A program made the translations under genes and the position numbers. Positions 1,969-40,588 of a stretch of DNA of 44,996 nt are shown here, piece by piece. The notes beneath the pieces are model-generated. The model saw nothing but the letters and a program-made list of their open reading frames with translations. It was not told the DNA's origin and did no database searches. Position 1 is the first letter of the stretch. Each line of letters opens with the position of its first letter. Source of the DNA: a phage; the sequence record PZ789432.1. One strand, 5' to 3'.

Positions 1969-2082
1969 ATGGAAAAGCTATACAACTTCATCTTTTCAGA
2001 CGGTGTAACCCTGAAGTGTTCCCTGCGTTTCGCACAAATTCGTGAGGAAGTACTAGGCACTACATACAAACTATTTAGCTGA
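1969..2082 (+). CDS. hypothetical small protein (37 aa)
   Basis: ATG 1969 with GAGG 8 nt upstream; overlaps a promoter-like sequence; weak. Confidence 0.25.
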   Translation: MEKLYNFIFSDGVTLKCSLRFAQIREEVLGTTYKLFS

Positions 2083-2098
2083 CACTATAAGAGAAGGC
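2074..2098 (+). promoter_or_regulatory. phage RNAP promoter-like sequence (variant: atttagctgacactataagagaag)
   Basis: Matches the SP6-type core GACACTATA but has A in place of the +1 G; activity uncertain. Confidence 0.35.
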
Positions 2099-2158
2099 TT
2101 AACAAGGCGTTGCTACGGTAGCGCCTGATTAAACTTTCACTTACTAGGAGTTAAGACT

Positions 2159-2386
2159 ATGGATTTAGATAGCATCATTATGGCATTTGCTCTTATTGGC
2201 TTAAGCTGGTGCTCCTATAACCTTTACCGTGAGTTCTTATTTGATAAAGCTAAACGCAAACTAAGAAAAGAAGGCGGCAATTACCTTTGTGTAAGAGGTG
2301 GGCTTGTAGAATACATTGCACCTAACGGCACGGAATGCGCCATTAGCAAAGATGCATTTATAGAAACGTGGCATTACATCAAGTAA
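2159..2386 (+). CDS. hypothetical early membrane protein (75 aa, N-terminal TM helix)
   Basis: ORF track; SD AGGAG upstream; hydrophobic N-terminus IIMAFALIGLSW. Confidence 0.6.
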   Translation: MDLDSIIMAFALIGLSWCSYNLYREFLFDKAKRKLRKEGGNYLCVRGGLVEYIAPNGTECAISKDAFIETWHYIK

Positions 2387-2449
2387 CTAGCCTATAGCCT
2401 ACCTGAGTGGGCTATGTGATATTTACTTACACTATATAAGGTGACTATT

Positions 2450-3373
2450 ATGACTACTGAAAACATCCTCCTGTCTGTCCGTGAAGCTGCAACCGCTGAG
2501 ATTAAGCAGCATTTGGATAATATCGGCACTTCTTACATCAAAGTTGGCGCTTGTCTGAATGAATTACGCGGTGATTTCGAAGGTCAAAAAGACTTTTTAG
2601 CTTATGTCGAATCAGAGTTCGGCATCAAGAAAGCACAATGCTACAAGCTGATGAGTGTAGCCCGTGTCTTTGAAGGAGACGAACGCTTTAAAGGTGTGGC
2701 TATGCGTGTAATGCTGGCGCTTGTTCCTTTCGCTGATGAAAATATGATCATGGAGAAGGCCGCAGAACTCGCCGCAGAGGGCAAGCTGGACACTAACGCC
2801 GTAAACGCCCTGATTGATCCTAAGAAAGAGACAAAGGCCGAGACGGTACAACCTAAGGTTGAGTCGGTAAAACCGCAGGAGAACGCGACTGAGGCCGCAG
2901 AAACTATGCAAGGACATGCAACCTTTGAGGATTTCATATTAGAGAAGGCGAAAGAGGAGCTACAAAGTGTGCCGCCAGCAAGTGAGTCGGATGACGACAA
3001 ATCAGCACCGTGGGAAGAGGAAAGCAAGCCGGAAGCGCCAAAGACTGCGCCACTGGACAACACGGCTAACACCGAGAGTGCCGCTATTGCTGGCCTTCTG
3101 GCACAAATTAAAGCACTGACTGAGCAATTACAGGCAGCCAATGACCGCATCGCCTCCTTAAGTAGCGCACGCGAAAGCAAGAAGGCAGCCGCGCCTATGC
3201 TGCCGCAATTCAAATCTTCCTGCTTCTATGCTCGCTTAGGTTTAAGCGCTGAGGAGGCAACGAAGAAAACAGCAGTTAACAAGGCACGCCGCGAACTGGT
3301 TAAGCTAGGCTACGGCGAAGGCCATGAAGCATGGCCCTTAATCTCTGAGGCAGTAGAAGAATTAACTAAGTAA
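2450..3373 (+). CDS. hypothetical early protein (307 aa), Ala/Glu-rich with a C-terminal coiled-coil-like region
   Basis: ORF track 2441..3373 starts at GTG; ATG at 2450 preceded by AAGGTG. Sits where T7 has gp0.7, but I see no kinase motifs. Confidence 0.7.
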   Translation: MTTENILLSVREAATAEIKQHLDNIGTSYIKVGACLNELRGDFEGQKDFLAYVESEFGIKKAQCYKLMSVARVFEGDERFKGVAMRVMLALVPFADENMIMEKAAELAAEGKLDTNAVNALIDPKKETKAETVQPKVESVKPQENATEAAETMQGHATFEDFILEKAKEELQSVPPASESDDDKSAPWEEESKPEAPKTAPLDNTANTESAAIAGLLAQIKALTEQLQAANDRIASLSSARESKKAAAPMLPQFKSSCFYARLGLSAEEATKKTAVNKARRELVKLGYGEGHEAWPLISEAVEELTK

Positions 3374-3436
3374 CCTTATCGGTGGCATCTTCTTAGGTGT
3401 CACCTATTAAGGTTTCTTTCACTAGGAGTAAACAAG

Positions 3437-6064
3437 ATGCAAGACCTACACGCTATTCAACTTCAACTTGAAGAAGAAATGTTTAACGGCGGTATCCGTC
3501 GCTTTGAAGCGGACCAACAACGCCAGATTGCATCCGGTAATGAATCAGACACGGCATGGAATCGCCGCTTATTGTCCGAGTTAATCGCGCCAATGGCTGA
3601 AGGTATTCAGGCTTATAAGGAAGAGTACGAAGGCAAGCGCGGTCGTGCACCACGTGCATTGGCTTTCATTAACTGCGTAGAAAATGAAGTGGCAGCGTAT
3701 ATCACGATGAAAATCGTAATGGATATGCTTAACACTGATGTAACCTTGCAGGCTATAGCCATGAATGTAGCTGACCGCATTGAGGACCAAGTACGTTTTA
3801 GCAAGCTGGAAGGTCACGCCGCCAAATACTTTGAGAAAGTTAAGAAGTCACTTAAGGCAAGTAAGACTAAATCATATCGCCATGCGCACAACGTAGCGGT
3901 CGTGGCTGAGAAGTCAGTAGCTGACCGTGACGCTGATTTCTCTCGCTGGGAGGCGTGGCCTAGAGATACCTTGCTACAAATTGGTATGACCTTGCTAGAA
4001 ATACTGGAAAATAGTGTATTCTTCAATGGTCAGCCTGTCTTTCTTCGCACCTTGCGCACTAATGGTGGCAAGCATGGCGTTTACTACTTACAGACTAGCG
4101 AACACGTGGGTGAATGGATAACTGCATTTAAAGAGCACGTAGCTCAGCTGAGTCCAGCCTATGCACCTTGCGTTATTCCTCCGCGTCCGTGGGTTTCTCC
4201 GTTTAATGGTGGCTTTCACACCGAGAAGGTGGCAAGTCGCATCCGTCTAGTAAAAGGTAACCGTGAGCACGTCCGTAAGCTGACTAAAAAGCAAATGCCA
4301 GCGGTTTACAAGGCTGTTAACGCCTTACAAGCTACTAAGTGGCAGGTTAACAAGGAAGTATTGCAGGTAGTAGAAGATGTTATTCGTCTAGACCTCGGTT
4401 ATGGTGTACCTTCCTTTAAGCCGCTCATTGACCGCGAGAACAAACCAGCTAACCCTGTTCCTCTTGAGTTCCAGCACCTGCGAGGCCGTGAACTTAAAGA
4501 GATGCTAACGCCGGAACAATGGCAAGCCTTTATAAACTGGAAAGGAGAATGTACCAAGCTGTATACCGCTGAAACTAAGCGCGGAAGCAAGTCGGCGGCG
4601 ACCGTTCGCATGGTTGGACAAGCCCGTAAATACAGCCAGTTTGACGCAATTTATTTTGTGTATGCACTGGACAGCCGTTCACGCGTTTATGCGCAATCTA
4701 GCACGCTCTCGCCGCAATCAAACGACTTAGGCAAGGCATTGCTCCGTTTTACCGAAGGGCAGCGTCTTGATAGCACTGAGGCGCTTAAGTGGTTTTTGGT
4801 GAACGGGGCGAATAACTGGGGTTGGGATAAGAAAACTTTTGACGTGCGCACCGCTAACGTGCTGGATAGCGAATTTCAAGACATGTGCCGCGACATTGCA
4901 GCGGATCCGCTGACCTTCACTCAATGGGTAAATGCTGATTCCCCTTATGGCTTCCTTGCATGGTGCTTTGAATATGCGCGTTATCTGGATGCACTGGACG
5001 AAGGAACGCAAGACCAATTCATGACGCACCTACCCGTCCATCAAGATGGTAGTTGCTCTGGTATCCAGCACTATAGCGCGATGTTACGAGATGAAGTAGG
5101 TGCGAAAGCAGTAAACCTTAAGCCTTCTGACTCCCCTCAAGATATTTATGGCGCGGTTGCGCAGGTTGTTATCCAGAAGAATTACGCCTACATGAATGCA
5201 GACGACGCAGTGACTTTCACATCCGGAAGCGTCACACTTACAGGTGCAGAACTGCGTAGCATGGCTAGTGCGTGGGATATGATAGGAATCACTCGCGGCC
5301 TGACCAAAAAGCCCGTAATGACACTACCTTATGGCAGCACACGTCTAACCTGCCGTGAGTCAGTGATTGATTATATCGTTGATTTAGAAGAAAAAGAGGC
5401 CCAACGAGCTATTGCGGAAGGGCGTACCGCCAATCCTGTACACCCTTTTGATAATGACCGTAAGGACAGCCTGACACCTAGCGCAGCTTATAACTATATG
5501 ACAGCTTTAATCTGGCCTTCTATTTCGGAAGTGGTTAAAGCTCCTATAGTGGCGATGAAAATGATTCGTCAGCTTGCCCGTTTCGCAGCTAAAAGGAATG
5601 AAGGCTTAGAGTATACCTTGCCTACTGGCTTCATCTTGCAACAAAAGATTATGGCTACTGATATGCTCCGCGTATCCACTTGCCTGATGGGAGAAATCAA
5701 GATGAGTCTCCAGATTGAAACGGACGTAGTGGATGAAACGGCTATGATGGGCGCTGCTGCTCCTAACTTTGTGCATGGTCATGATGCCAGTCACCTTATC
5801 TTAACGGTCTGCGACCTTGTTGATAAAGGGATTACATCTATCGCAGTAATTCATGATTCTTTTGGCACTCATGCAGGTCGCACCGCAGACCTACGTGATA
5901 GTCTAAGGGCAGAAATGGTGAAGATGTATCAAGGCCGTAACGCTCTGCAAAGCCTGTTAGATGAGCATGAAGAACGCTGGTTAGTAGACACCGGAATCCA
6001 AGTGCCAGAGCAAGGAGAGTTTGACCTTAACGAAATCTTAGTATCTGACTATTGCTTCGCATAA
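3437..6064 (+). CDS. single-subunit DNA-dependent RNA polymerase (SP6-type)
   Basis: 875 aa; N-terminus [32 protein letters not shown] and C-terminus ...[12 protein letters not shown]...[10 protein letters not shown] closely match SP6 RNAP as I remember it; T7-family motifs present ([39 protein letters not shown]). Confidence 0.97.
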
Positions 6065-6073
6065 TATTAATAG

Positions 6074-6104
6074 GCCATTCCTTAGGGAGTGGCCTTTTCT
6101 TTTA
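6074..6104 (+). terminator. intrinsic terminator after the RNAP gene
   Basis: Hairpin ggccattcc-ttag-ggagtggcc (9-bp stem, one G-U pair) followed by TTTTCTTTT. Confidence 0.6.
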
Positions 6105-6137
6105 CCTATTACCTGTAACATTTAATTAACATAACCG

Positions 6138-6153
6138 TGTCTCACACGTGAGA
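6138..6153. repeat. 16-bp palindrome GTCTCACACGTGAGAC
   Basis: 7-bp inverted arms GTCTCAC/GTGAGAC; lies just upstream of a phage promoter. Confidence 0.8.
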
Positions 6154-6156
6154 CTT

Positions 6157-6179
6157 ATTTACCGGACACTATAGGATAA
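6157..6179 (+). promoter_or_regulatory. phage RNAP promoter (atttaccggacactatagg)
   Basis: Matches the genome-wide consensus ATTTACYGGACACTATAG; predicted +1 G at 6174. Confidence 0.7.
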
Positions 6180-6320
6180 CCGTCGGAGACGGAAAGAAAG
6201 GGAAGATAAAGGATATAAAAGGAAGTAATAGGTATTAAAGGTTATATAGGTTTACCTAGGAATACCTATTACCTTCTTCCTTCCTCTTATTACTACTTAA
6301 AGGAAGGGCAGACCTAAGTT

Positions 6321-6336
6321 GTCTCACATGTGAGAC
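6321..6336. repeat. 16-bp perfect palindrome GTCTCACATGTGAGAC
   Basis: Same family as 6138..6153; just upstream of a second phage promoter. Confidence 0.8.
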
Positions 6337-6341
6337 TTCGT

Positions 6342-6364
6342 ATTTACCGGACAATATAGATAAG
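6342..6364 (+). promoter_or_regulatory. phage RNAP promoter variant (atttaccggacaatatagataag)
   Basis: One core mismatch (C to A); second of two tandem promoters upstream of the gene 1.1-like ORF, as phi1.1A/phi1.1B in T7. Confidence 0.55.
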
Positions 6365-6389
6365 ACTAACTTACTTTGGAGATTTAACC

Positions 6390-6740: not shown

Positions 6741-8728
6741 TGGCTATTATTAATAACATCCCGTGCCCTGCCTGTCAAAAGAATGGACATGATATTACTG
6801 GCAACCATCTTATGATATTTGAGGATGGCGCTGGTTACTGTAACCGTGGTCACTTCCATGATAATGGTAAGCCTTATTACCATAAGCCAGAGGGTGGTAT
6901 CGAGATAACCGAATTGCCTATTACTGGCAATATCAAATATACACCTTCTCAATTCAAAGAAATGGAGAAGGAAGGGAAGATAAGCGACCCTAAGCTACGC
7001 GCCATCGCACTTGGTGGTATGCGTATGAAAGATCGTTGGGAGGTCATGAATGAGCAAGAAAGGGCAGACCAAGAAGCAGAGTGGAAGCTTGATGTTGAAT
7101 GGTTCCTCACGCTTAAGCGTAAGAACCTTGTATCCCGTCACATTCGAGGTGACATCGCAGCAATGTACGATGTGCGCGTTGGACACGATGAAGAGGGAAG
7201 AGTCAACCGTCACTATTATCCACGATATGAAAAGGGTGTGCTTGTTGGAGCAAAATGCCGGACGTTGCCGAAGGATTTTAAGTTCGGACACCTAGGTAAA
7301 CTCTTTGGTATGCAAGACCTTTTCGGTATGAACACTTTGTCTCACGTGTTAGACAAGGGGAGACGAAAGGATTGCTTGCTTATTGTAGGCGGTGAACTTG
7401 ATGCACTAGCAGCGCAGCAGATGCTCCTTGATTCTGCCAAGGGTACTAAGTGGGAAGGCCAGCCATACCATGTATGGTCTGTCAACAAAGGCGAGTCTTG
7501 TCTTGAAGAGATAGTGCAAAACCGTGAGCATATCGCCCAATTCAAGAAGATTATATGGGGTTTTGATGGAGATGAGGTAGGGCAGAAGCAGAATCAGCAA
7601 GCGGCTCGCCTGTTTCCTGGCAAATCCTATATCCTTGAATACCCCTCTGGTTGCAAAGATGCTAACAAGGCATTGATGGCTGGCAAGGCTAAAGAGTTTG
7701 TAGATGCATGGTTTAATGCCAAGTCATCTGATGAAGTCTTTGGTAGCCAGATTAAATCTATCGCATCTCAAAGGGATAAGCTCAAGGCTGCACGTCCAGA
7801 GCAAGGACTATCATGGCCTTGGCCTAAGCTGAACAAGGTCACGCTAGGTATTCGTAAGAACCAACTTATCATTGTAGGCGCAGGCTCTGGTGTAGGTAAG
7901 ACTGAGTTCCTTCGTGAAGTAGTTAAGCACCTCATTGAAGAACACGGTGAATCTGTAGGCATCATTTCTACAGAAGACCCGATGGTCAAGGTGTCCCGTG
8001 CTTTTATCGGCAAGTGGATTGATAAGCGCATTGAGTTACCGCCAACCAACGACCCGAAAGAAGATGGATACCGTGAGGTGTTCGACTACACCGAGGAAGA
8101 GGCTAACGCCGCCATTGATTATGTAGCTGATACAGGTAAGCTGTTTGTAGCTGACCTAGAGGGTGACTATTCGATGGAAAAGGTAGAGCAAACTTGCCTA
8201 GAGTTTGAGGCTATGGGCATTTCTAATATCATCATTGATAACTTAACGGGGATTAAATTAGATGAGCGTGCTTTTGGTGGGAAGGTTGGTGCACTTGATG
8301 AATGCGTCAAGCGGATTGGTACTATCAAAGACCGACACCCGGTTACTATATTCCTTGTATCACACCTTACACGTCCTCCGGCAAACCGTACCCAACACGA
8401 AGAAGGTGGCGAGGTTATCCTTTCTGACTTCCGAGGCTCAGGCGCTATCGGATTCTGGGCATCTTACGCCTTGGGGATTGAGCGTAATACAAGAGCTGAA
8501 ACGCTTGACGAAAGGACTACCACGTACATCTCATGTGTCAAAGACCGCGACCAAGGAATATTTTCCGGTACTCGTATAATGCTTAAAGGTGATATTGCTA
8601 CTGGTCGATTACGTGAACCAGAGCAAAGATCTCGACCGTTTGATACTGGTGCTCCAAAAGAACAAACTGTACCAGAAGAAGTAGTGGATAAAGGAGGATT
8701 TATTGCTGACGAAGTTGAAGAGTTTTGA
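6740..8728 (+). CDS. DNA primase/helicase (T7 gp4-like)
   Basis: 662 aa; N-terminal zinc ribbon CPACQ...CNRGH; Walker A VGAGSGVGKTEF; acidic C-terminus ending EEF. Confidence 0.93.
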   Translation: MAIINNIPCPACQKNGHDITGNHLMIFEDGAGYCNRGHFHDNGKPYYHKPEGGIEITELPITGNIKYTPSQFKEMEKEGKISDPKLRAIALGGMRMKDRWEVMNEQERADQEAEWKLDVEWFLTLKRKNLVSRHIRGDIAAMYDVRVGHDEEGRVNRHYYPRYEKGVLVGAKCRTLPKDFKFGHLGKLFGMQDLFGMNTLSHVLDKGRRKDCLLIVGGELDALAAQQMLLDSAKGTKWEGQPYHVWSVNKGESCLEEIVQNREHIAQFKKIIWGFDGDEVGQKQNQQAARLFPGKSYILEYPSGCKDANKALMAGKAKEFVDAWFNAKSSDEVFGSQIKSIASQRDKLKAARPEQGLSWPWPKLNKVTLGIRKNQLIIVGAGSGVGKTEFLREVVKHLIEEHGESVGIISTEDPMVKVSRAFIGKWIDKRIELPPTNDPKEDGYREVFDYTEEEANAAIDYVADTGKLFVADLEGDYSMEKVEQTCLEFEAMGISNIIIDNLTGIKLDERAFGGKVGALDECVKRIGTIKDRHPVTIFLVSHLTRPPANRTQHEEGGEVILSDFRGSGAIGFWASYALGIERNTRAETLDERTTTYISCVKDRDQGIFSGTRIMLKGDIATGRLREPEQRSRPFDTGAPKEQTVPEEVVDKGGFIADEVEEF

Positions 8729-9191
8729 GGCAGCAGGATATACCATCAAGGAGGATGGTACTATCCTTAACCCTAAAGGTGTAATACTTAAACCGAGCCA
8801 ATCAGGAAGGAAATTAAAGTATTTATATGTAAGTTGGAGACATCAAGGAAGAAGAGTAACAGAGCTTGTACACAGATTGGTTGCTAAGAAGTACATACCC
8901 AACCCACACAGTTTACCAGAAATTCATCATAAAGACTTTAACCCTCTTAATTGTCATAAAGACAATCTTGAATGGACAGATGGTAAGACTAATTGTGAGT
9001 ATAGTTATGCAAGGGTAGAAGCTGCACTTGCACGTCATGCTACTTTATTGTCACCTGATGGCATTAAGTACGACATATTTAATGTTCGTAAATTCTGCCG
9101 CGAACATGGCCTCAATCCACCTAGTGTATTTGAGGTGCTTAGTGGTAAACGGAAGTCACATAAAGGGTGGACTATTTACCGGACACTATAG
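8703..9191 (+). CDS. HNH homing endonuclease
   Basis: 162 aa; EIHHKDFNPLNCHKDNLEW HNH motif. No in-frame ATG; starts at TTG 8703 six nt after AAGGAGG, inside the last 26 nt of the helicase gene. Confidence 0.8.
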   Translation: MLTKLKSFEAAGYTIKEDGTILNPKGVILKPSQSGRKLKYLYVSWRHQGRRVTELVHRLVAKKYIPNPHSLPEIHHKDFNPLNCHKDNLEWTDGKTNCEYSYARVEAALARHATLLSPDGIKYDIFNVRKFCREHGLNPPSVFEVLSGKRKSHKGWTIYRTL

Positions 9192-9225: not shown

Positions 9226-9387
9226 ATGGAAATTATTAAACCAGTATTGAATATCGGTATTGAGATCCTATTCATGCTTGTGATCGCAGATTATGCTGCA
9301 CGATATGGATTCAAGAAAGCTGTGAAACTTATCGTTGCATCTGGTTTTCTTATGTCAATGTTCTTTATTGTAACACGCCTTATCTAG
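9226..9387 (+). CDS. hypothetical small membrane protein (53 aa)
   Basis: ATG 9226 with SD CAGGAG; hydrophobic throughout. Confidence 0.4.
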   Translation: MEIIKPVLNIGIEILFMLVIADYAARYGFKKAVKLIVASGFLMSMFFIVTRLI

Positions 9388-9404: not shown

Positions 9405-9420
9405 GTCTCACATGTGAGAC
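9405..9420. repeat. 16-bp perfect palindrome GTCTCACATGTGAGAC in a terminator-like context
   Basis: Flanks extend the pairing (gcttgtctcaca/tgtgagacaggc), followed by tcttatt. Confidence 0.8.
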
Positions 9421-9459
9421 AGGCTCTTATTAAGTACATTAAATAACTGGAGATTGATT

Positions 9460-10143
9460 ATGTATAAATTAGTATTGAATGTAGGTGATTATGTTCGTAA
9501 CATCAATGAAGCCTCACGTCGTTATCGTTGCCGTGGTGTAGTGGCTCGTGTAAGTGAGAACATGTATCATGTAGAATATGATGATGGTATTAAGGCTTCT
9601 TATCACAAGAAAACCGCACATAAATATCTTGAAAAGGTTGTAGAGGTAAACAATCAATGTAAGTGCATACATGATGAGGTTTGCGATAAATGTGCTCGCC
9701 AGATGCTTAAGAATTTCCTAGCCCCTCTTTATTATGGTGCTGGTCCTCAAACACTAGCAGAGTACATGGCAGAAAAGAAAACCACACTCAAGAAAGAGCG
9801 TCGCAATGTAATCACTGGTAAGACTCAAAGTGAGATGATTAAGCAATGTGGCACTGCATTAGGTGTTACACAGTTCAATACTCGTGCATTGGGTAAATCC
9901 ACAGGGCAAGCTATGGTGAAAATTGGTGAAGCTATGATGCAACCAAATGTACCTGTGCGAATCGTGGATATTGACCATGCAATCACAGAGCATGGTACAC
10001 CACGCCGTGTAGCTAACAATCATTTTGCCGACACTATAGAAGACATTATTCGTAAGCAAGGGTTGAAGGGTCTTCACATCTTAAATGGTGAAGAATTACT
10101 GTACCTACCTATCGTTACTGAAGAAACCTACGTGAATATCTAA
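9460..10143 (+). CDS. hypothetical protein (227 aa)
   Basis: ORF track 9454..10143 (TTG); first ATG at 9460 with SD GGAG; contains a Cys cluster CKCIHDEVCDKC. Confidence 0.7.
   Translation: MYKLVLNVGDYVRNINEASRRYRCRGVVARVSENMYHVEYDDGIKASYHKKTAHKYLEKVVEVNNQCKCIHDEVCDKCARQMLKNFLAPLYYGAGPQTLAEYMAEKKTTLKKERRNVITGKTQSEMIKQCGTALGVTQFNTRALGKSTGQAMVKIGEAMMQPNVPVRIVDIDHAITEHGTPRRVANNHFADTIEDIIRKQGLKGLHILNGEELLYLPIVTEETYVNI
10022..10044 (+). promoter_or_regulatory. phage RNAP promoter located inside a CDS (ttttgccgacactatagaagac)
   Basis: Core GACACTATAGAAGA identical to the consensus; lies within 9460..10143. Confidence 0.5.
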
Positions 10144-10548: not shown

Positions 10549-10564
10549 GTCTCACACGTGAGAC
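10549..10564. repeat. 16-bp palindrome GTCTCACACGTGAGAC in a terminator-like context
   Basis: Extended stem ggttgtctcac/gtgagacagcc followed by tttcatc. Confidence 0.8.
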
Positions 10565-10703: not shown

Positions 10704-10908
10704 ATTAAGCAAGGTTTGCTCTTGCGGTAAAGGCTATCGCAGTCGTATTGATGGTAAGTGTGGACATTGTAGGTCTAAGAAAGAGGCTGCTTTGTTTTAC
10801 AAATACCACAATGAACTCTCCTATAACTACCCTCATCTAACACCTAATTCTTTATTAGGACTTGGTTATAGGGCTAAATACTTTGGAGCAATCTATGAAA
10901 TCAATTGA
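10690..10908 (+). CDS. hypothetical zinc-ribbon protein (72 aa)
   Basis: ORF track 10663..10908; ATG 10690 preferred (GAGG 6 nt upstream); CSCGKG...CGHC motif. Confidence 0.5.
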   Translation: MKTIKLSKVCSCGKGYRSRIDGKCGHCRSKKEAALFYKYHNELSYNYPHLTPNSLLGLGYRAKYFGAIYEIN

Positions 10909-13730: not shown

Positions 13731-13753
13731 ATTTACTGTACACTATAGAAGGA
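13731..13753 (+). promoter_or_regulatory. phage RNAP promoter variant (atttactgtacactatagaagg)
   Basis: Consensus with G to T at -9; +1 G at 13748. Confidence 0.6.
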
Positions 13754-14204: not shown

Positions 14205-14501
14205 ATGGAAGAAGTGATTCAAGCTAAACATGTAGGTATCATCTTTCGTGATCTAGAGCAGCGTAAAGTTGCAGGTCACACTCGTCTGGCTAAAGAATAC
14301 GATACAGCAATCACTACTGTGGAACAAGCAGATGCCTATCGTGGTCCAGAGTTTACTCAAGGTGAAACTTGTCATCAATTGAGCCTTTCACTTTGTGACA
14401 CTATGGCTAGTGTAAATGTACAAGAGGTTGAAGATGGTGAATGTGTTAGTTATGTCTACCCTCTCGACACTATTGCACGTATTAAGGTAGTTCATAAGTA
14501 A
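14205..14501 (+). CDS. hypothetical protein (98 aa)
   Basis: ORF track 14202..14501; second ATG (14205) has better spacing to AAGGGG. Confidence 0.65.
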   Translation: MEEVIQAKHVGIIFRDLEQRKVAGHTRLAKEYDTAITTVEQADAYRGPEFTQGETCHQLSLSLCDTMASVNVQEVEDGECVSYVYPLDTIARIKVVHK

Positions 14502-14522
14502 TTACTGGACACTATAGAACAA
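14500..14522 (+). promoter_or_regulatory. phage RNAP promoter (aattactggacactatagaacaa)
   Basis: Consensus match; +1 G at 14517. Confidence 0.7.
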
Positions 14523-15614: not shown

Positions 15615-15630
15615 GTCTCACGTGTGAGAC
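15615..15630. repeat. 16-bp palindrome GTCTCACGTGTGAGAC
   Basis: Same family; 15 bp upstream of a phage promoter. Confidence 0.8.
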
Positions 15631-15644
15631 AAATCGGTGTCCGG

Positions 15645-15668
15645 TATTTACTGGACACTATAGAAGAG
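15645..15668 (+). promoter_or_regulatory. phage RNAP promoter (tatttactggacactatagaagag)
   Basis: Exact consensus; +1 G at 15663. Confidence 0.8.
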
Positions 15669-16099: not shown

Positions 16100-16105
16100 T
16101 TGATG

Positions 16106-16137
16106 CCCTGTCTGCCTTAGTGTAGGCAGGGTCTTTT
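16106..16137 (+). terminator. hairpin + U-run terminator
   Basis: ccctgtctgc-cttagt-gtaggcaggg followed by TCTTTT; similar in sequence to the terminator after the capsid gene. Confidence 0.6.
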
Positions 16138-24003: not shown

Positions 24004-24027
24004 TATTTACTGGACACTATAGAAGGG
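24004..24027 (+). promoter_or_regulatory. phage RNAP promoter for the capsid gene (tatttactggacactatagaaggg)
   Basis: Exact consensus; +1 G at 24022; transcript starts with hairpin gggagaaaatgtctccc. Confidence 0.8.
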
Positions 24028-25282: not shown

Positions 25283-25290
25283 TACCTATG

Positions 25291-25323
25291 CCCTATCTAC
25301 CTTGCGTAGGTAGGGTTCTTTTT
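25291..25323 (+). terminator. hairpin + U-run terminator after the capsid gene (T-phi analog)
   Basis: ccctatctac-cttgc-gtaggtaggg followed by TTCTTTTT. Confidence 0.65.
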
Positions 25324-32163: not shown

Positions 32164-32179
32164 GTCTCACATGTGAGAC
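32164..32179. repeat. 16-bp perfect palindrome GTCTCACATGTGAGAC in a terminator-like context
   Basis: Extended stem cttgtctcaca/tgtgagacagg followed by tcttt. Confidence 0.8.
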
Positions 32180-35200: not shown

Positions 35201-35534
35201 TAAAGGGTTGGCCTTTGGTGCAATGGGTATGATGAGTACAACTGCTGTATTTAGTCTAGGTGGAGATTTCTTAGGTGGCCTAGGTGTTCTACCTTCTGAG
35301 TTAGTACAATCCCGTTATGAGGCTGGCTTTCAGACTAAGGGTTTGATAGACCAAATACCACTAGTAGGTGTTGGTCAAGATGCATATCGTTTAGCAGATT
35401 CTATAACTAAATACGCAGAGGGCGATACAGAAGGTGTAGATGTGGCACGTAGGGCTTTACGCTTAGTGCCTCTAGCTAATGTAATAGGAATCCAGAACGC
35501 ATTGCGTTATGGCTTAGATGAACTGGAGGATTAA
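32211..35534 (+). CDS. large internal virion (core) protein, T7 gp16-like by position
   Basis: 1107 aa; SD GGAGG; last of three internal proteins between tail tube and tail adaptor genes. Confidence 0.75.
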   Translation: MEQDIKTNWAGYVQSTPEPFSIEAAPVSAPTIRQRNELQEQVLEAKADADILGAVGAAFQNEWLAFGGKRWYDRATADFTPQPDFEIQPEQREALRFKYGTDMMQTITEGVRSEDELNFRIQNADEDLERNKRIAQAGWVGSVATIGAAVLDPVGWVASIPTGGAAKVGLVGRAVRGAIAAGVSNAAIESILVQGDMTRDLDDIMVALGSGMAMGGVIGAVARGRATKLSEQGDDRAASIVRSADAGDRYVRAVADDSIGAMRVKGEEVLTEGAFDISSKGEDLLKTLQREGNAIDMTPRRWAGTLSALGTVVHSSHDTSVRGLGARLFESPQGLGMQKASASLMQNTNLNRLKSADMNRFNDGFDLWLKENNINPVAGHTNSHYVQQYNEKVWEAVRIGMDESTPKSIRMAAEGQQAMYREALALRKRSGEAGFENIKADNKYMPDIFDTMKARRQFDRIGKDIDKEDIIELFSRAYQNGARKIPKEVADEIARAQVNRVAGCHLDRTAMSFEKAMSGQTKAEYEALMRKAGFSDEEIEKMVEALDNKETRDNISNRAKMSLGLDVTQEYNGIRMRDFMNTNVEELTDNYMKEAAGGAALARQGFSTYQAALNAIDLVERNARNAAKDTKAHAQFEAESAKIRQSEPDYKRAQEKIEELKKRLKLKEKDEAAGLAIDEEIRQMREGLRLIMGKSIDSNPQDLSTKMLRRGRDITGVLRLGQMGFAQLGELANFMGEFGIAATTMALGKQFRFTSKALRNGDGFFRDKNLAEVERMVGYIGEDNWLTTKGARPDEFGDVTTVRGMMAHFDQSMNSIRRAQTNLSLFRMAQGSLERMTNRQIALSFIDHLEGKKIIPQKKLEELGLTQEFMTNLQKHYDANSKGSGLLGFDTMPYAMGETLANAIRRKSGLIIQRNFIGDEGIWMNKALGKTFAQLKSFSLVSGEKQFGRGIRHDKIGLAKKTAYGFALGSIVYAAKAYVNSIGREDQDEYLEEKLSPKGLAFGAMGMMSTTAVFSLGGDFLGGLGVLPSELVQSRYEAGFQTKGLIDQIPLVGVGQDAYRLADSITKYAEGDTEGVDVARRALRLVPLANVIGIQNALRYGLDELED

Positions 35535-36497
35535 TGAGTTATACTTTCACAGAACATATAGCCAACGGTACGCAAGTAACCTATCCCTTTAGCTTTGCTG
35601 GTAGGGATAAAGGTTATCTTCGTGCCTCAGATGTGATAGTGGAGATCTCTTCAAGGTAACACTTGGATTGAGGTTACATCTGGCTGGCAACTAACTGGCA
35701 CGCACCAGATTACTTTTGATGTAGCACCAGTTGCAGGTTTGAAGTTCCGTATTCGAAGGGAAGTACAAAAGGAGTATCCATACGCTGAGTTTGACCGTGG
35801 TGTTACCTTGGATATGAAGTCTTTAAATGGTTCTTTCATTCATATACTGGAGATTACACAGGAGTTACTTGACGGGTTTTATCCAGAAGGATACTTCATT
35901 AAACAGAATGTAAGCTGGGGCGGCAATAAGATTACTGATTTGGCTGATGGCACAAATCCGGGAGATGCAGTAAACAAAGGGCAGCTTGATGCCATTGACA
36001 AGAAGCATACAGATTGGAATGCCAAACAGGACATTGAGATTGCTGGCCTTAAGGCTGGTATGACTTCTGGTATTGCGCACAGAACTGTTCCTTGGTACAC
36101 GATAGCCCAAGGTGGTGAGATTTCCGTAAAACCACCTTATGAATTTCAAGATGCACTAGTTTTCCTTAATGGGGTATTGCAGCACCAAATTGTAGGCGCA
36201 TACTCTATAAGCAACAACACTATCACTTTCGCAGAGTCGCTTGTGGCGGGTACAGAGGTGTATGTGCTGATTGGTAGTCGTGTGGCTACATCTGAACCTA
36301 ATATTCAGTTAGAGTTGAACTTTGACTTAGTAGAAGGCCAACAAGTAGTACAGATTGGCTCTGCATTTAAGTACATTGAGGTCTACCTTGATGGATTATT
36401 ACAACCTAAACTTGCTTATCAGGTAGACGGTGACATTGTTACTTTCTCAGAGGGAGTGCCAGAATGCCGGATGACTGCTAAGATTATCACAGCATAA
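35534..36497 (+). CDS. tail fiber/tailspike adaptor (T7 gp17 N-terminal-domain-like); frame-disrupted
   Basis: ATG 35534 gives MSYTFTEHIANGTQVTYPFSFAGRDKGYLRASDVIVEISSR* (ends 35659). Homology continues in another frame from ~35640 (NTWIEVTSGWQLTG...; ORF track 35739..36497). One indel near 35648..35656 restores ~321 aa. Confidence 0.7.
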
Positions 36498-36506: not shown

Positions 36507-36701
36507 ATGATTAACTCCGAACTGGTAGATAGTGGTGTGAAGCTTGCGCCACCTGCACTCGTATCAGGTGGGTACTTCCTCGGTATCAGTTGGGATAATT
36601 GGGTGTTAATAGCAACATTCATTTATACCGTGTTGCAAATTGGGGACTGGTTTTATAATAAGTTCAAGATTTGGAGGGAGAAGCGTGAGCGTACACAATA
36701 A
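36507..36701 (+). CDS. holin (T7 gp17.5-like)
   Basis: 64 aa; SD AAGGAGG; TM segment and WVLIATFIYTVLQIGDWFYNKFKIWREK paralleling T7 gp17.5 AAIAYTVVQIGAKVVDKMIDWKK. Confidence 0.65.
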   Translation: MINSELVDSGVKLAPPALVSGGYFLGISWDNWVLIATFIYTVLQIGDWFYNKFKIWREKRERTQ

Positions 36702-36984
36702 ACATGCAGCTACAGAGGATGAGGTTGGCATTCTGCATGGTGCTATTACCAAAATCTTCAATAAGAAAGCACAGGCAATACTGGACACTATAGAAGAAGA
36801 CCCTGATGCAGCATTACATTTAGTGTCTGGTAAGGATATTGGTGCGATGTGTAAGTGGGTTCTTGATAACGGCATTACCGCCACACCTGCTGCACAGCAG
36901 GAAGAGTCCAAGTTATCTAAGCGCCTCAAGGCTATCCGAGAGGCATCCAGTGGTAAGATAATTCAATTCACTAAGGAGGATTGA
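36685..36984 (+). CDS. terminase small subunit (T7 gp18-like)
   Basis: ORF track 36640..36984; no in-frame ATG early; GTG 36685 five nt after GGAGGGA; directly upstream of terminase large subunit. Confidence 0.6.
   Translation: MSVHNKHAATEDEVGILHGAITKIFNKKAQAILDTIEEDPDAALHLVSGKDIGAMCKWVLDNGITATPAAQQEESKLSKRLKAIREASSGKIIQFTKED
36778..36800 (+). promoter_or_regulatory. phage RNAP promoter inside the terminase small subunit gene (aatactggacactatagaagaag)
   Basis: Core ACTGGACACTATAGAAGA identical to consensus; +1 G at 36793. Confidence 0.55.
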
Positions 36985-38882
36985 TGGCTAAGGCAAGAGA
37001 ATCACAAGCGGAGGCTCTTGCCAGATGGGAGATGCTACAGGAGTTACAGCAGACCTTTCCTTACACAGCGGAAGGTTTGCTTCTCTTTGCAGATACAGTT
37101 ATTCATAACTTAATTGCAGGCAACCCTCATCTGATTCGTATGCAGGCTGATATCTTGAAGTTCCTATTTTACGGACACAAGTACCGCCTCATCGAAGCGC
37201 CTCGTGGTATCGCTAAGACAACACTATCAGCAATCTATACGGTATTCCGTATTATTCATGAACCGCATAAGCGTATCATGGTTGTGTCCCAAAACGCCAA
37301 GCGAGCAGAGGAAATCGCAGGTTGGGTAGTTAAAATCTTCCGTGGCTTAGACTTTCTTGAGTTTATGCTGCCGGATATCTACGCTGGGGACCGTGCATCC
37401 GTTAAGGCGTTTGAGATTCATTACACCCTACGTGGTAGTGATAAGTCTCCTTCTGTATCCTGTTACTCAATCGAAGCAGGTATGCAGGGTGCTCGTGCTG
37501 ATATTATTCTAGCGGATGACGTAGAGTCGATGCAGAATGCTCGTACGGCAGCGGGCCGTGCCTTGCTTGAGGAACTGACTAAGGAGTTTGAATCTATCAA
37601 CCAGTTTGGGGATATCATTTACCTTGGTACACCTCAGAACGTAAACTCTATCTACAACAACCTACCTGCTCGTGGTTACTCTGTTCGTATCTGGACTGCG
37701 CGTTACCCTTCAGTAGAGCAAGAGCAATGTTATGGCGACTTCCTTGCACCTATGATTGTTCAAGATATGAAGGACAACCCAGCACTTCGCTCAGGGTACG
37801 GGTTGGATGGTAATAGTGGTGCACCTTGTGCCCCTGAAATGTATGATGATGAAGTCCTGATTGAGAAGGAAATCTCTCAGGGTGCTGCTAAGTTCCAGCT
37901 TCAGTTCATGCTTAACACTCGCATGATGGATGCTGACAGATACCCATTACGCCTGAACAATCTAATCTTCACCTCGTTTGGTACAGAGGAAGTCCCTGTG
38001 ATGCCTACGTGGAGTAATGATTCCATAAACATCATTGGTGATGCACCTAAGTATGGTAACAAGCCTACGGATTTCATGTACAGACCTGTAGCTCGCCCAT
38101 ACGAATGGGGTGCTGTCTCCCGCAAGATTATGTATATTGACCCTGCGGGTGGCGGTAAGAATGGGGATGAGACGGGTGTGGCTATCGTATTCCTGCACGG
38201 CACATTCATTTACGTGTATCAGTGCTTCGGTGTGCCGGGTGGATACCGCGAATCGTCCCTGAATCGCATTGTGCAGGCCGCAAAGCAGGCGGGTGTTAAA
38301 GAGGTATTCATTGAGAAGAACTTTGGTCATGGCGCGTTTGAGGCGGTAATTAAGCCGTACTTTGAACGAGAGTGGCCTGTAACTCTGGAAGAGGATTACG
38401 CCACCGGACAGAAAGAATTGCGTATCATTGAGACGCTGGAGCCGCTCATGGCAGCCCATAGGCTTATCTTCAATGCAGAAATGGTGAAGTCAGACTTTGA
38501 GTCGGTACAGCACTATCCGCTTGAACTACGCATGTCCTACAGTCTTTTCAATCAAATGTCGAACATAACGATTGAGAAGAACAGCCTCCGGCACGATGAC
38601 CGCCTAGACGCCCTGTATGGCGCTATACGGCAATTAACTTCTCAGATAGACTATGACGAGGTTACACGGATTAATCGCCTCAGAGCGCAGGAGATGCGAG
38701 ATTACATCCATGCTATGAACACACCTCATCTACGCAGGGCAATGCTATATGGGGATTACGGTACTGAGCGAAGAGTGACCAACACTTCCGTAGCGATGCA
38801 GCAGCGAGTTTACGGGCAGAACTACCGAAATAAATCGGCAAGCAGAAATACACTTTCTGCAAGGATTTCAAGGACTTATTAA
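36984..38882 (+). CDS. terminase large subunit
   Basis: 633 aa (ORF track 36981, ATG 36984); position and size as T7 gp19; acidic nuclease-type segments in C-terminal half. Confidence 0.9.
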   Translation: MAKARESQAEALARWEMLQELQQTFPYTAEGLLLFADTVIHNLIAGNPHLIRMQADILKFLFYGHKYRLIEAPRGIAKTTLSAIYTVFRIIHEPHKRIMVVSQNAKRAEEIAGWVVKIFRGLDFLEFMLPDIYAGDRASVKAFEIHYTLRGSDKSPSVSCYSIEAGMQGARADIILADDVESMQNARTAAGRALLEELTKEFESINQFGDIIYLGTPQNVNSIYNNLPARGYSVRIWTARYPSVEQEQCYGDFLAPMIVQDMKDNPALRSGYGLDGNSGAPCAPEMYDDEVLIEKEISQGAAKFQLQFMLNTRMMDADRYPLRLNNLIFTSFGTEEVPVMPTWSNDSINIIGDAPKYGNKPTDFMYRPVARPYEWGAVSRKIMYIDPAGGGKNGDETGVAIVFLHGTFIYVYQCFGVPGGYRESSLNRIVQAAKQAGVKEVFIEKNFGHGAFEAVIKPYFEREWPVTLEEDYATGQKELRIIETLEPLMAAHRLIFNAEMVKSDFESVQHYPLELRMSYSLFNQMSNITIEKNSLRHDDRLDALYGAIRQLTSQIDYDEVTRINRLRAQEMRDYIHAMNTPHLRRAMLYGDYGTERRVTNTSVAMQQRVYGQNYRNKSASRNTLSARISRTY

Positions 38883-39316: not shown

Positions 39317-39334
39317 GAGAAGGAGGAAGATTAC

Positions 39335-39628
39335 ATGGCTAAATATGGTACTAAAGGTTCTGTTACGGGTCAGGCTTTTCGAGTGAAAGCAGTACAAACT
39401 ATTGCAACGGCAATCCCGATGCCTGTTGTTAAAGAAGTAGACCTTAAGAGTAAAGATCACCCTATCAACATCAAACATTTATCAGGTAAACAGAAAGGTG
39501 CAATGGTTGCTCTTGAGAAAAGTGACACAACCTTACATATTGCTGTTGCACGTGGTAGTGAACCAACAGACCCTTGGGATGTAACTGGCATGGACTCGCT
39601 CGCTGTCACTCCAGCAGGTGGAGAATAA
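39335..39628 (+). CDS. hypothetical protein (97 aa), paralog B of a tandem pair
   Basis: ORF track; SD AAGGAGG; LSGKQKGAMVALEKSDTTLHIAVARG parallels KSGKQKGAMVCLEVEGGVLKIAIAVDG upstream. Confidence 0.7.
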   Translation: MAKYGTKGSVTGQAFRVKAVQTIATAIPMPVVKEVDLKSKDHPINIKHLSGKQKGAMVALEKSDTTLHIAVARGSEPTDPWDVTGMDSLAVTPAGGE

Positions 39629-39985
39629 TGCTTAACAAATACTTCAAGCGCCGTGAGTTCGCTTGCCGTTGTGGGTGCGGTACATCCACTGTTGATGCTG
39701 AATTACTACAGGTAGTCACAGATGTGCGTGAGCACTTTGGTTCGTACCTGTAGTAATCACTTCGGGGCATCGCTGTGCTAAGCACAATGCCAACGTAGGA
39801 GGAGCTAAGAAGGTTCCATGCATCTTACTGGTAAGGCTGCTGACATTAAGGTATCTAGGTGTCTGGTACCAATCGGAGGTACGTACAGTACCTCTGCTAA
39901 TAAATACCCTGATAAGTATGGCATTGGTGCTTATACCTACTTTTACCCATATCGACGTTACGAGACAACGAGTGCACGATGGTAA
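39628..39985 (+). pseudogene. endolysin, zinc peptidase M15-type, with about four frame disruptions in this sequence
   Basis: Successive frames give MLNKYFKRREFACRCGCG...VREHFGS / PVVITSGHRCAKHNANVGGAKK / SMHLTGKAADIKV...GIGAYTY / FTHIDV / ...SARW*, together the M15 hallmark. Each break is at a short G or T run. Confidence 0.75.
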
Positions 39986-40094
39986 GATGTGTTGAATGGT
40001 GTGAACGCATGGTTGCCAAAGCATCCAGAGGATGGCAACTATGATGACTGGAAGAACTACTCTGAATTGTTAGCTCAATGGAAAGGGAGATGCA

Positions 40095-40190
40095 ATGAAA
40101 AAGCTGTTTAAGTCTAAGAAGGTTGTAGGTGCACTGGTTGCACTGGTTATTGCACTTGTTTCTGTAGGTCTTGGCGTAGACCTTGGCTGA
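40095..40190 (+). CDS. hypothetical small membrane protein (31 aa)
   Basis: ATG 40095 after AAGGGAG; MKKLFKSKKVVGALVALVIALVSVGLGVDLG. Confidence 0.35.
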   Translation: MKKLFKSKKVVGALVALVIALVSVGLGVDLG

Positions 40191-40324
40191 AGGTACGGAA
40201 GGTTCCTGTCACTGACGTGGTCTGCCAAGTGATCACCTGTGAATAAGGTGCTTGAAGTGGTGGCAGGTCTTATTGGCCTGCTGCTTGCCGCTAAGAAGAA
40301 GCAAGGAAGAAAAGGAGGCACAAA

Positions 40325-40426
40325 GTGAAGCGAATCATGCTAGCGACAATCCTGCTGATTGGTTCGCTGACCACTTCCGGGTGTCAGACAGGCGTTACCA
40401 GAGAGTCCAATGGTGAAACCGTCTGA
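40325..40426 (+). CDS. small lipoprotein-like ORF (candidate o-spanin-like)
   Basis: GTG 40325 six nt after AGGAGG (or ATG 40337); MLATILLIGSLTTSGCQTG has a signal peptide with lipobox-like TSGC. No intact i-spanin ORF is visible. Confidence 0.35.
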   Translation: MKRIMLATILLIGSLTTSGCQTGVTRESNGETV

Positions 40427-40564
40427 AGCCGACGCTGACGGCAGTTTACGAGGTAGACGATAAGGTCTGCTTCAGTAAGCCTGACGCTACAAAATTAGGT
40501 TTGTATATTCTTTCGCTAGAACGCGGATATAATTAATACATAGCTTTATGTATCAGTGTCTTAC

Positions 40565-40588
40565 GATTTACTGGACACTATAGAAGAG
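40565..40588 (+). promoter_or_regulatory. phage RNAP promoter upstream of the tailspike genes (gatttactggacactatagaagagg)
   Basis: Exact consensus; +1 G at 40583. Confidence 0.8.

Follow-up and report, generated by a model that had tools for sequence, protein, structure and literature searches.

The question raised by this locus is how a phage with an SP6-like RNA polymerase comes to carry promoters that are not quite those of SP6, and what is to be made of the members of the set that lie inside genes or start with the wrong base. The window (the whole 44,996-nt stretch of DNA analyzed here, record PZ789432.1) had been read in a preliminary description as holding a phage promoter set that departs from the classical SP6 promoter, with two sites inside coding regions and one that might be decayed. 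We consider it very probable that these are the known Vectrevirus promoters read by the phage RNA polymerase gp7, that their departure from SP6 is a genus-wide shift at positions -12 to -10, that the internal sites are ordinary, and that the site at 2073 is a conserved variant with an A start.

The window is a complete genome of Vectrevirus (K1E/K1-5-like coliphages), with 93-97% nucleotide identity to K1E, K1-5, and many other Vectrevirus records, and carries a terminal repeat of about 245 bp; an Rfam search of the window gave 0 matches. Comparisons within the genus used 13 complete genomes, namely the window and 12 others (K1-5, K1E, and 10 further). For polymerases, a first scan of viral contigs relied on N-terminal peptide patterns only, giving 21 loci, to which genomes from a phage collection were added.

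A co-oriented promoter set and its polymerase

Thirteen sites, all on the + strand, fit ATTTAC(T/C)GGACACTATAGAAG. A search for ATTTACYGGACACTATAGAAG with at most 3 mismatches returned 12 matches, again confined to the + strand, as against 0 expected from 100 shuffles; the twelve-site set of the preliminary description is thus borne out, with several of its coordinates moved by 1-2 bases (15645 to 15646, 24004 to 24005, 38880 to 38881, 40565 to 40566, 36778 to 36776, and 2074 to 2073). The thirteenth site, at 2073 (ATTTAGCTGACACTATAAGAG, with +1 = A), was found in a separate search. On a weight-matrix scan the 13 sites scored 21-38 bits, with the next best match at 9.7 and the shuffle maximum at 14.1. 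A promoter-like string at 2420 was dropped, its matrix score being only 5.4 bits. The sites have the makeup of a promoter class, in that an element of about 23 bp (-17 to +6) with a CACTATAG core is repeated genome-wide in the orientation of the genes, and the cognate polymerase that single-subunit promoters call for is encoded in the same genome (ORF 3437-6064). The promoters, with a slash marking the start site where it is given, are as follows:

2073..2095, + strand, promoter variant with A at +1, ATTTAGCTGACACTATA/AGAGAA, upstream of gp5-gp6-RNAP; 24 bits; in 13/13 Vectrevirus genomes
6157..6179, + strand, promoter ATTTACCGGACACTATAGGATAA, upstream member of a tandem pair that follows the RNAP gene; 32 bits
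6342..6364, + strand, promoter ATTTACCGGACAATATAGATAAG, second of the tandem pair; non-consensus A at -5; 21 bits
9174..9196, + strand, promoter ATTTACCGGACACTATAGAAGAG, overlapping the 3' end of an inserted HNH ORF (8703-9191); 37 bits
10022..10044, + strand, intragenic promoter ATTTTGCCGACACTATAGAAGAC, within the gp10 homologue (9454-10143); 28 bits
13731..13753, + strand, promoter ATTTACTGTACACTATAGAAGGA; -9 is T here and G in the 12 other genomes
14500..14522, + strand, promoter AATTACTGGACACTATAGAACAA, from pattern search and matrix scan
15646..15668, + strand, consensus promoter ATTTACTGGACACTATAGAAGAG; 38 bits
18801..18823, + strand, promoter ATTTAGTTGACACTATAGAACAA; its GTT triplet is kept at this site in 13/13 genomes
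24005..24027, + strand, major-capsid promoter ATTTACTGGACACTATAGAAGGG, from pattern search and matrix scan
36776..36798, + strand, intragenic promoter CAATACTGGACACTATAGAAGAA, within the small terminase gene (36685-36984); 31.5 bits
38881..38903, + strand, promoter AATTACTGGACACTATAGAAGGA, where the large terminase gene ends
40566..40588, + strand, tailspike-cassette promoter ATTTACTGGACACTATAGAAGAG, in a block of about 140 nt conserved with SP6

The polymerase gene, its specificity loop, and the terminators are placed as follows:

3437..6064, + strand, single-subunit RNAP gene (gp7 homologue), 875 aa
5648..5734, + strand, specificity loop of the RNAP, located by alignment
6072..6095, + strand, hairpin and T-run terminator that closes the early unit, directly past the RNAP gene
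16105..16132, + strand, terminator-like hairpin and T-run
25290..25316, + strand, hairpin and T-run terminator that follows the major capsid gene

The RNAP ORF matches T7 RNAP structures with E = 5e-112, and its product is 99% identical to the K1-5/K1E enzymes, 98% to the published RNAP No. 2049, 86% to SP6 RNAP, and 35% to T7 RNAP; the 86% figure upholds the earlier description of the enzyme as SP6-like. On this layout, two sigma-70-like sites, at 646 and 1230, would probably serve host polymerase for transcription of the left end, which would run on across the RNAP gene and stop at the 6072 terminator. Initiation by the phage enzyme would follow, at the G after TATA (or at the A at 2073), with the replication genes driven from the sites between 6157 and 18801, the structural genes from 24005, and the genes for packaging, lysis, and tailspikes from 36776, 38881, and 40566. 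In vivo firing of each individual site, and the role of the +1 A site, we infer from sequence.

Each of the 13 sites has a positional orthologue in every one of the 12 other complete Vectrevirus genomes, K1-5 and K1E among them, and the triplets at -12 to -10 that are specific to each site recur in all 12. Among the 13 Vectrevirus genomes, 10 of 221 alignment columns are variable in the promoter cores, as opposed to 731 of 2340 in the flanks. Relative to K1-5 and K1E, in which the orthologous sites have the same or nearly the same sequence, differences are of strain level only: the T at -9 of 13731, the A at -5 of 6342 (where most relatives have G), and the HNH ORF before 9174. This ORF is an insertion between the helicase gene and the 9174 promoter; in K1-5 and K1E, the orthologous promoter falls within the last codons of the helicase gene. 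The window also shows about 10 frameshifts, and these, like the T at -9 of 13731, may be sequencing errors.

The same promoter list, including both intragenic sites and the +1 A site, has been given for a sister genome (PMC13029058, 2026, Supplementary Fig. S3A). Judged by this orthology together with PMC13029058 and PMC6412113, the motifs are phage-RNAP promoters of the known K1E/K1-5 type and are not new; both the promoter set and its in vitro behavior are already in the literature. Text searching turned up no further accounts of SP6-like or K1E promoters, and the GenBank records of K1-5, K1E, and SP6 hold no promoter features. The K1-5 and K1E promoters were reportedly first listed in the original descriptions, by Scholl (2004, J Mol Biol; 2002, J Bacteriol) and Dobbins (2004).

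The -12 to -10 shift and the specificity loop

Compared with the classical SP6 promoter ATTTAGGTGACACTATAGAAG, the promoters of the window are identical at -17 to -13, at -9 to +1, and in the GAAG start, and they occupy genome positions orthologous to those of the SP6 promoters. The departure from SP6 noted earlier is real, but narrower than the -12 to -8 then proposed: G at -9 and A at -8 are common to both sets, and only -12, -11, and -10 differ, with C-(T/C)-G here (CTG or CCG) as against G-G-(T/G) in SP6 (GGT). The cleanest difference is at -11, which is G in 0/13 sites here and in 12/12 in SP6; at -12, C10/G3 here stands against G8 in SP6, and at -10, G10 here stands against T9 there. Because -11 is never G, the window works like SP6 but does not hold an SP6-type promoter set, for which G at -11, within GG(T/G) at -12 to -10, is diagnostic. 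The remark that only 18801 keeps TTGAC was slightly off, since 2073 also has T at -10 (GCTGAC). Across the genomes compared, the shift is a property of the whole genus Vectrevirus. In the tailspike region, where the block of about 140 nt is conserved with SP6, the promoter differs only at -12 to -10 (plus +4); a few scattered substitutions are seen in the block besides. The SP6 promoter is said to have been subjected to saturation mutagenesis by Shin (2000, PNAS).

Aligned to T7, the specificity loop places S747 (nt 5675-5677) at N748, R745 at R746, K755 at R756, and S757 at Q758. In the loop comparison that the preliminary description had proposed, the enzyme has Ser at the T7-N748-equivalent residue, as does K1-5, and lacks the Arg that marks SP6-type enzymes and is found in the SP6, Kpp-61, L011-L013, and L016 RNAPs. 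One sequence of 14 loop residues is common to 12/12 Vectrevirus enzymes and another to 6/6 enzymes of genomes with GGT promoters; over a longer stretch of 21 residues, the window shares its loop with K1-5, K1E, and 8 IMG/VR relatives, and one further relative, L020, has I changed to V. The residue N748 of T7 (D749 of T3) reportedly sets specificity at -10 and -11, from the work of Raskin et al. (1992-93) and Cheetham et al. (1999). The sole non-conservative loop difference from SP6 RNAP aligns with this residue, and the promoter differences here lie at -10 to -12. In L014, the residue at the T7-R756 position is changed from K to F and the promoter is changed at -9/-8, which shows that loop and promoter co-vary in this group. 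Era103, the only other lineage with Ser, has C at both -12 and -11. A general rule by which Arg implies G at -11 was rejected, since in PM93 and Kp7, whose enzymes carry Arg, that position is A or T/C. By analogy with T7 and T3, the most likely origin of the shift would be co-evolution with one loop change, Ser747 in place of the Arg of SP6, which would have moved the base preference while leaving the SP6 consensus usable.

A more drastic possibility is that the polymerase has been re-tuned so far that SP6-type promoters are no longer recognized, as with T7 and T3, where the swap gives near-exclusive specificity. The full disjunction of the two promoter sets at -11 and the Arg to Ser replacement would both suit such a switch; however, a close homologue remains active on the SP6 consensus. 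In vitro, the SP6 consensus TATTTAGGTGACACTATAGAAGAG yielded 3.5% with RNAP No. 2049, the local consensus TATTTACTGGACACTATAGAAGAA about 2%, and a -9/-8 variant TAATTAGAGACCACTATAG 0.18% (PMC13029058), where the fluorescence of 2-3.5% of T7 is low, comes from one assay format, and compares two templates that differ also at +6, and where the enzyme differs from gp7 at 16 residues, including S757G in the specificity loop (T7-Q758 position). An enzyme 98% identical to gp7 is thus slightly better on the SP6 consensus than on its own, and comparable use of ATTTAGGTGAC... and ATTTACTGGAC... templates has already been seen for this homologue. Furthermore, the source genome of No. 2049 itself lists two GGT sites (PMC13029058), window sites 2073 and 18801 retain G at -12 and T at -10, and the tailspike cassettes of Vectrevirus L009 and L057 are driven from an exact SP6-consensus promoter, which was imported with the cassette from Klebsiella SP6-like phages. 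We therefore give an exclusive switch very little credence; specificity is shifted or relaxed rather than switched. Between the altered specificity and the tolerance that the preliminary description had offered, No. 2049 transcription and the L009/L057 promoters speak for tolerance, with a loop that does differ from that of SP6. Equal transcription of both templates had been named there, along with silence of the internal sites, as what would refute the reading, and at least equal use of the SP6 consensus by the 98%-identical enzyme indeed counts against an exclusive change. Evidence for specific initiation by the cognate enzyme is indirect, consisting of the in vitro activity of No. 2049 on the local consensus and of the C3P3 expression system, where the K1E capsid promoter is functional when paired with K1E RNAP.

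Alternatively, positions -12 to -10 might go unread altogether, with CTG and GGT a frozen accident that was spread by recombination or gene conversion and is unrelated to the loop. Such neutral drift could account for the activity of both consensus sequences in vitro and for the variety of triplets tolerated (CTG, CCG, GCC, GTT, and GCT in the window; GGT, GGG, AGG, AGT, and CGT in SP6). An unread position would not, however, behave as -11 does across clades, where the G of SP6 is equally invariant in all Kpp-61, L011-L013, and L016 sites and almost absent from about 170 Vectrevirus sites. In addition, the triplet is the only block change within the otherwise conserved 140-nt region, and the one non-conservative loop difference falls on the very residue known in T7/T3 to read -10/-11. 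We regard drift as unlikely, and return to co-evolution with the loop. A specific form of it, which we put forward only tentatively, is that Ser747 may act as a relaxed reader of -11 that accepts a pyrimidine or G, where Arg-bearing SP6-type enzymes would need G, so that compatibility would be one-way and cassette import permitted. If true, Vectrevirus could import tailspike cassettes together with foreign promoters (L009 and NIC06P3 being examples), whereas transfer in the other direction would fail, and promoter tolerance would be a determinant of host-range module exchange.

Promoters within coding sequence and the A-start site

The two sites placed inside coding regions by the preliminary description do lie there, 10022 in the gp10 homologue and 36776 in the small terminase gene. 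The former is about 110 nt upstream of gp10.5 (10154); the latter, whose motif encodes AILDTIEE, has its +1 188 nt ahead of the large terminase gene (alignment with K1-5 gp40 begins at 36984). Promoters within coding sequence are routine in T7-type phages, and both sites are found in 13/13 complete Vectrevirus genomes, so the oddity that had been implied for them falls away.

The same two sites could in principle be silent by-products of coding sequence rather than promoters. Both are within conserved proteins, and the gp10-internal site of L014 keeps an SP6-type GAC although L014's own promoters have TGC. Site by site, the excess conservation of the cores is not significant alone (variable columns 0/17 in the core and 20/180 in the flanks for 36776; 1/17 and 33/180 for 10022), such tests on the intragenic promoters being underpowered at 93-97% genome identity. 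Against this stand the presence of both sites throughout the genus and an 18-nt exact consensus match (-14 to +4), which chance would not be expected to produce in 45 kb. In SP6, Kpp-61, Kp7, phD2B, and Era103, this region of the peptide is likewise encoded by the TerS homologues, but the motif is absent (the SP6 genome, lacking the TerS-internal site, has its own internal site at 29393), whereas Vectrevirus TerS spells the motif with D-T and two ATA codons. In gp10, the motif is 9 nt apart between the Vectrevirus and SP6 clades (the equivalent site in SP6, Kpp-61, and L014 being displaced by that distance), and S-L-V/I or N-L-I takes the place of D-T-I in clades that lack it; the restriction of D-T-I to genomes with the motif suggests that the promoter imposes the codons. 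We judge the by-product reading distinctly unlikely, and 10022 and 36776 would instead be ordinary internal promoters written in the frame GAC-ACT-ATA-GAA (D-T-I-E).

At 2073, the missing +1 G had led to the suggestion of a decayed promoter, and its matrix score is the second lowest of the 13, above that of 6342. A decayed, non-functional remnant is nevertheless hard to reconcile with the distribution of the site. The same +1 A form, TATA/AGA(G), lies upstream of the gp5-gp6-RNAP block in SP6, Kpp-61, L011-L014, Kp7, and phD2B, and is kept across four further promoter-specificity types, its -7 to -12 bases matching each genome's own promoter type (GACAC, TAGCAC, GCGAG, or GCTAC); a remnant would not track polymerase changes in this way. 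Within the 13 Vectrevirus genomes, 2073 is invariant over -15 to +2 apart from one change at -12. We consider decay very unlikely, and the site is better read as a conserved A-initiating variant that would feed phage-RNAP transcription into the gp5-gp6-RNAP block.

These observations are chiefly of use in annotation and to those who work with SP6-family polymerases: K1E/K1-5-type enzymes appear to prefer C-(T/C)-G at -12 to -10 yet accept the SP6 consensus, with Ser747 versus Arg as the likely determinant. The A-start promoter before the RNAP block, the promoters in the D-T-I-E frame, and the tailspike cassettes with SP6-type promoters are leads rather than discoveries. T7 has phi4c inside gene 4, a class II promoter, phi2.5, that starts with A, and the tandem phi1.1A/1.1B at its primary origin. 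The window likewise has promoters within coding sequence and an A-start variant, although at positions not homologous to those of T7, and its tandem pair 6157/6342, just past the RNAP gene, is followed by an AT-rich stretch as in T7.

A genus-wide promoter set

The promoters of the window are a genus-wide set that was already known. Allowing up to 3 mismatches, ATTTACYGGACACTATAGAAG matches the window 12 times, on the + strand only (0 expected), and a 13th site, 2073, is picked up by the SP6 pattern; we name each site by the first base of its 23-base motif. With a weight matrix built on 11 of them, all 13 sites score 21-38 bits, against 9.7 for the next best position on either strand and a peak of 14.1 in shuffled sequence. 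The preliminary description of these sites was correct in substance, with some coordinates 1-2 bases off. Anchored on ACTATA, every window site pairs one-to-one by position with sites in K1-5 and K1E, and most pair also with SP6. The same 13 sites are present in ten further complete Vectrevirus genomes, and each keeps its own -12 to -10 triplet across these genomes.

Triplets at -12 to -10, by site type
CCG: 6157, 6342, 9174
GCC: 10022
GTT: 18801
GCT: 2073
CTG: all remaining sites

Across these genomes, 10 of 221 columns vary in the promoter cores (-15 to +2) as against 731 of 2340 in the flanks; indel-rich stretches of the alignment inflate the latter figure. The same site list, with the +1A, gp10-internal, and TerS-internal sites among its entries, was published in 2026 for a sister genome (PMC13029058, Supplementary Fig. 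S3A), and the C3P3 expression system uses a "K1E promoter" with K1E RNAP.

SP6 and the window share one consensus at -17 to -13 and -9 to +1, and the two sets are fully disjoint only at -11.

Base counts at the divergent positions (window, 13 sites; SP6, 12 sites)
-12: window C10, G3; SP6 G8, A2, C1, T1
-11: window T8, C5, G0; SP6 G12
-10: window G10, T2, C1; SP6 T9, G3

Around the tailspike promoter, SP6 and the window have a conserved block of ~140 nt in common, and the only changes within the promoter are the -12 to -10 triplet and position +4, a pattern that speaks against simple drift. At corresponding map positions, the other Molineuxvirinae genera have promoters of their own.

Promoters of other genera
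PM93: AATTA(A/G)AGACCACTATAG
phD2B: AATTAGGGGCTACTATAG
Kp7: TAATAGTGGCGAGTATAG
L014 (IMG/VR 3300045988_000861): A(T/A)TTGTGTTGCACTATAG
Era103: ATTAACCACCCAGTATAG

Specificity loop and promoter tolerance

The window's own polymerase, gp7, hits structures of T7 RNAP with E = 5e-112 and is 99% identical to the K1-5 and K1E enzymes, 86% to SP6, and 35% to T7. HMMER and MAFFT alignments agree in placing R745, S747, K755, and S757 opposite T7 R746, N748, R756, and Q758. Over the specificity loop, 12 Vectrevirus enzymes share one string of 16 residues followed by (I/V)ETDV, and the six enzymes whose genomes have GGT promoters (SP6, Kpp-61, and the related phages L011-L013 and L016) share one of 20 residues followed by (I/V). 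The comparison with SP6, which the preliminary description had called for, thus yields a sole non-conservative difference: opposite T7 N748, gp7 has Ser and SP6 RNAP has Arg. The residue at this position sets the preference at -10/-11 in T7 and T3. L014 is a clean example of covariation between loop and promoter: its RNAP (83% identical) has F in place of K (also V in place of I) at the position aligned with T7 R756, and its promoters, TGTTGCACTATAG, have T at -9 and G at -8. In the other Ser lineage, Era103, both -12 and -11 are C. The relation is not a clean code, since the PM93 and Kp7 enzymes bear Arg yet have A or T/C at -11; we therefore only infer that Ser747 caused the promoter shift, at roughly even odds.

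The divergent consensus had been proposed to reflect either altered specificity or tolerance. Published measurements on No. 2049, an RNAP 98% identical to gp7 (858/874) with Ser at 747 and the substitution S757G, bear directly on this choice. Transcription by the purified enzyme, measured by fluorescence and normalised to T7 RNAP, reached 3.5% on the SP6 consensus template TATTTAGGTGACACTATAGAAGAG, about 2% on the local consensus template TATTTACTGGACACTATAGAAGAA, and 0.18% on a PM93-type template TAATTAGAGACCACTATAGAAGAA (PMC13029058). From these three signals, -9/-8 are discriminated and CTG versus GGT at -12 to -10 is not. As far as the polymerase is concerned, the published data on this homologue thus contradict an exclusive change of specificity. 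The proposed reading is right in part: preference has moved at -12 to -10, tolerance is retained, and specificity has not switched.

The exact classical SP6 promoter, ATTTAGGTGACACTATAGAAGAG, also lies 5' of the tailspike cassette in two relatives, at positions orthologous to window site 40566.

Exact SP6 promoters at the tailspike cassette
L009 (Vectrevirus contig), 2709-2731
L057 (phage NIC06P3), 4575-4597

Both genomes encode RNAPs with the Vectrevirus loop, and their homology with the window breaks at the promoter. In L009, promoter and leader share 91-99% identity with Klebsiella SP6-like phages and so were imported along with the cassette. To judge from these junctions, promoters appear to serve as exchange points for receptor-binding modules, and the two SP6 promoters agree with the in vitro tolerance of No. 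2049.

Intragenic and A-initiating sites

Two strong matches within coding regions had been singled out.

Intragenic sites
10022, + strand, in the gp10 homologue; encodes H-F-A-D-T-I-E-D
36776, + strand, in the small terminase (TerS) gene (phrog_891); perfect -14 to +4 match; encodes A-I-L-D-T-I-E-E, using two ATA codons

Site 36776 is present in 13/13 genomes, and its core shows two singleton changes in 15 Vectrevirus sequences, with flanking third codon positions free to vary; TerS homologues from five other genera read AIL(D/A/N/E)(A/E/V)(I/V)E, without the motif. SP6, Kpp-61, and L014 have the equivalent of site 10022 at a 9-nt offset in the homologous gene (L-R-D-T-I-G), the L014 site retaining the SP6-type GAC, and gp10 of promoter-less genera has S-L-V/I or N-L-I at that place. 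The promoter of the 9174 type occupies, in K1-5 and K1E, acidic C-terminal helicase codons in the last ~50 nt of the gene (P-D-T-I-E-E); in the window, an HNH homing-endonuclease ORF (8703-9191; phrog_59, E = 5e-30) is inserted between the helicase gene and the promoter, and this ORF ends on the TAG of the promoter's TATAG as its stop codon. All coding-embedded copies (gp10, TerS, helicase C-terminus) share the frame GAC-ACT-ATA-GAA, or D-T-I-E (window 10030-10041 and 36785-36796; K1E 9350-9361), where homologues in promoter-less genera have different residues. In-gene promoters are normal in T7-type phages, an example being T7 phi4c. On sequence grounds, sites 10022 and 36776 are ordinary promoters, putatively active in vivo, with nothing anomalous about them.

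At 2073, TATA is followed by AGA(G), with A at +1, and several lineages have this form at the same place, 5' of the gp5-gp6-RNAP block, with -7 to -12 bases that follow each genome's own promoter type.

The +1A site in other genomes
SP6: AGTTATGTGACACTATA, then AGATGA
Kpp-61 and L011-L013: same type as SP6
L014: ...TGTAGCACTATA, then AGAGGC
Kp7: TAATAGCGGCGAGTATA, then AGACAG
phD2B: AATAAGAGGCTACTATA, then AGAGAG

The suggestion that 2073 is a decayed promoter is wrong, since a decaying relic would not track each genome's promoter type. The site is most simply read as a conserved A-initiating promoter, probably weak, through which the phage polymerase would boost expression of its own gene block. 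An A start has precedent in T7 phi2.5. A truly decayed promoter may instead be the string TATTTACTTACACTATATAAGGT at 2420-2442, just 5' of gp6, which scores only 5.4 bits, has T at +1, and overlaps a sigma-70-like match; its K1-5 counterpart is ATTTACTTAACACTATATAAGGT.

Sequence quality, transcription map, and a repeated palindrome

Over its first 25 kb, and over the RNAP ORF (3437-6064), the window has 93-97% nucleotide identity to dozens of Vectrevirus records, among them K1E and K1-5 (Autographiviridae, Molineuxvirinae). The first 245 bases recur at 44742-44986 as a direct terminal repeat of ~245 bp, and the window is therefore a full-length linear genome. Compared with K1-5 proteins, its essential genes carry ~10 frameshifts.

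Frameshifted genes
10895-13445, DNA polymerase; five reading-frame segments, four frameshifts
16382-17408, exonuclease; one or two
23078-23996, scaffold; one or two
35534-36494, gp37 tail adaptor; one or two
39628-39982, gp43; one or two
40668-42564, K5-lyase-like tailspike; one or two

Either the assembly is prone to indel errors or the genome is defective; the sequence may contain such errors, and single-base oddities must accordingly be read with care. One such is the -9 T at 13739, in the 13731 promoter (CTGTACACTATAG), which occurs in this genome only, all 12 other complete Vectrevirus genomes having G. T7 and SP6 both have -9 among their specificity positions, so this promoter may be weakened; alternatively, the T may be an error.

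The transcription map, inferred in part, adds the following elements; the window has no promoters between 24005 and 36776.

Other transcription signals
646-674 and 1230-1258, sigma-70-like sites
6072-6095, hairpin and T-run terminator, 3' of the RNAP gene
16105-16132, hairpin and T-run terminator
25290-25316, hairpin and T-run terminator, 3' of the capsid gene

The 6157/6342 pair (window 6130-6370) consists of a palindrome plus promoter duplicated in tandem at a distance of 182-185 bp, flanking an AT/purine-rich stretch directly 3' of the RNAP gene and its terminator. Its layout resembles the phi1.1A/1.1B region of T7, the primary origin of that phage. In the second copy, -5 is always non-C (A in the window and NIC06P3, G in the other genomes).

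The palindrome itself, 16-bp GTCTCAC(A/G)(C/T)GTGAGAC, has 8 copies when up to 2 mismatches are allowed (0.04 expected).

Palindrome copies
6139-6154, 6321-6336, 9405-9420, 10549-10564, 15615-15630, 32164-32179; exact, all six intergenic
596 and 7339; near-copies

Three copies lie directly 5' of promoters, and at 9405 and 32164 the RNA stem grows to 13 bp (-18 to -20 kcal/mol), with a U-rich tail after it. The palindrome, which has no Rfam family, is conserved at matching positions in K1-5, K1E, and IMG/VR relatives. It may act as a hairpin for processing or stabilising RNA, or as a binding site for a protein. In Erwinia phage Era103, too, GTGAGAC motifs adjoin promoters.
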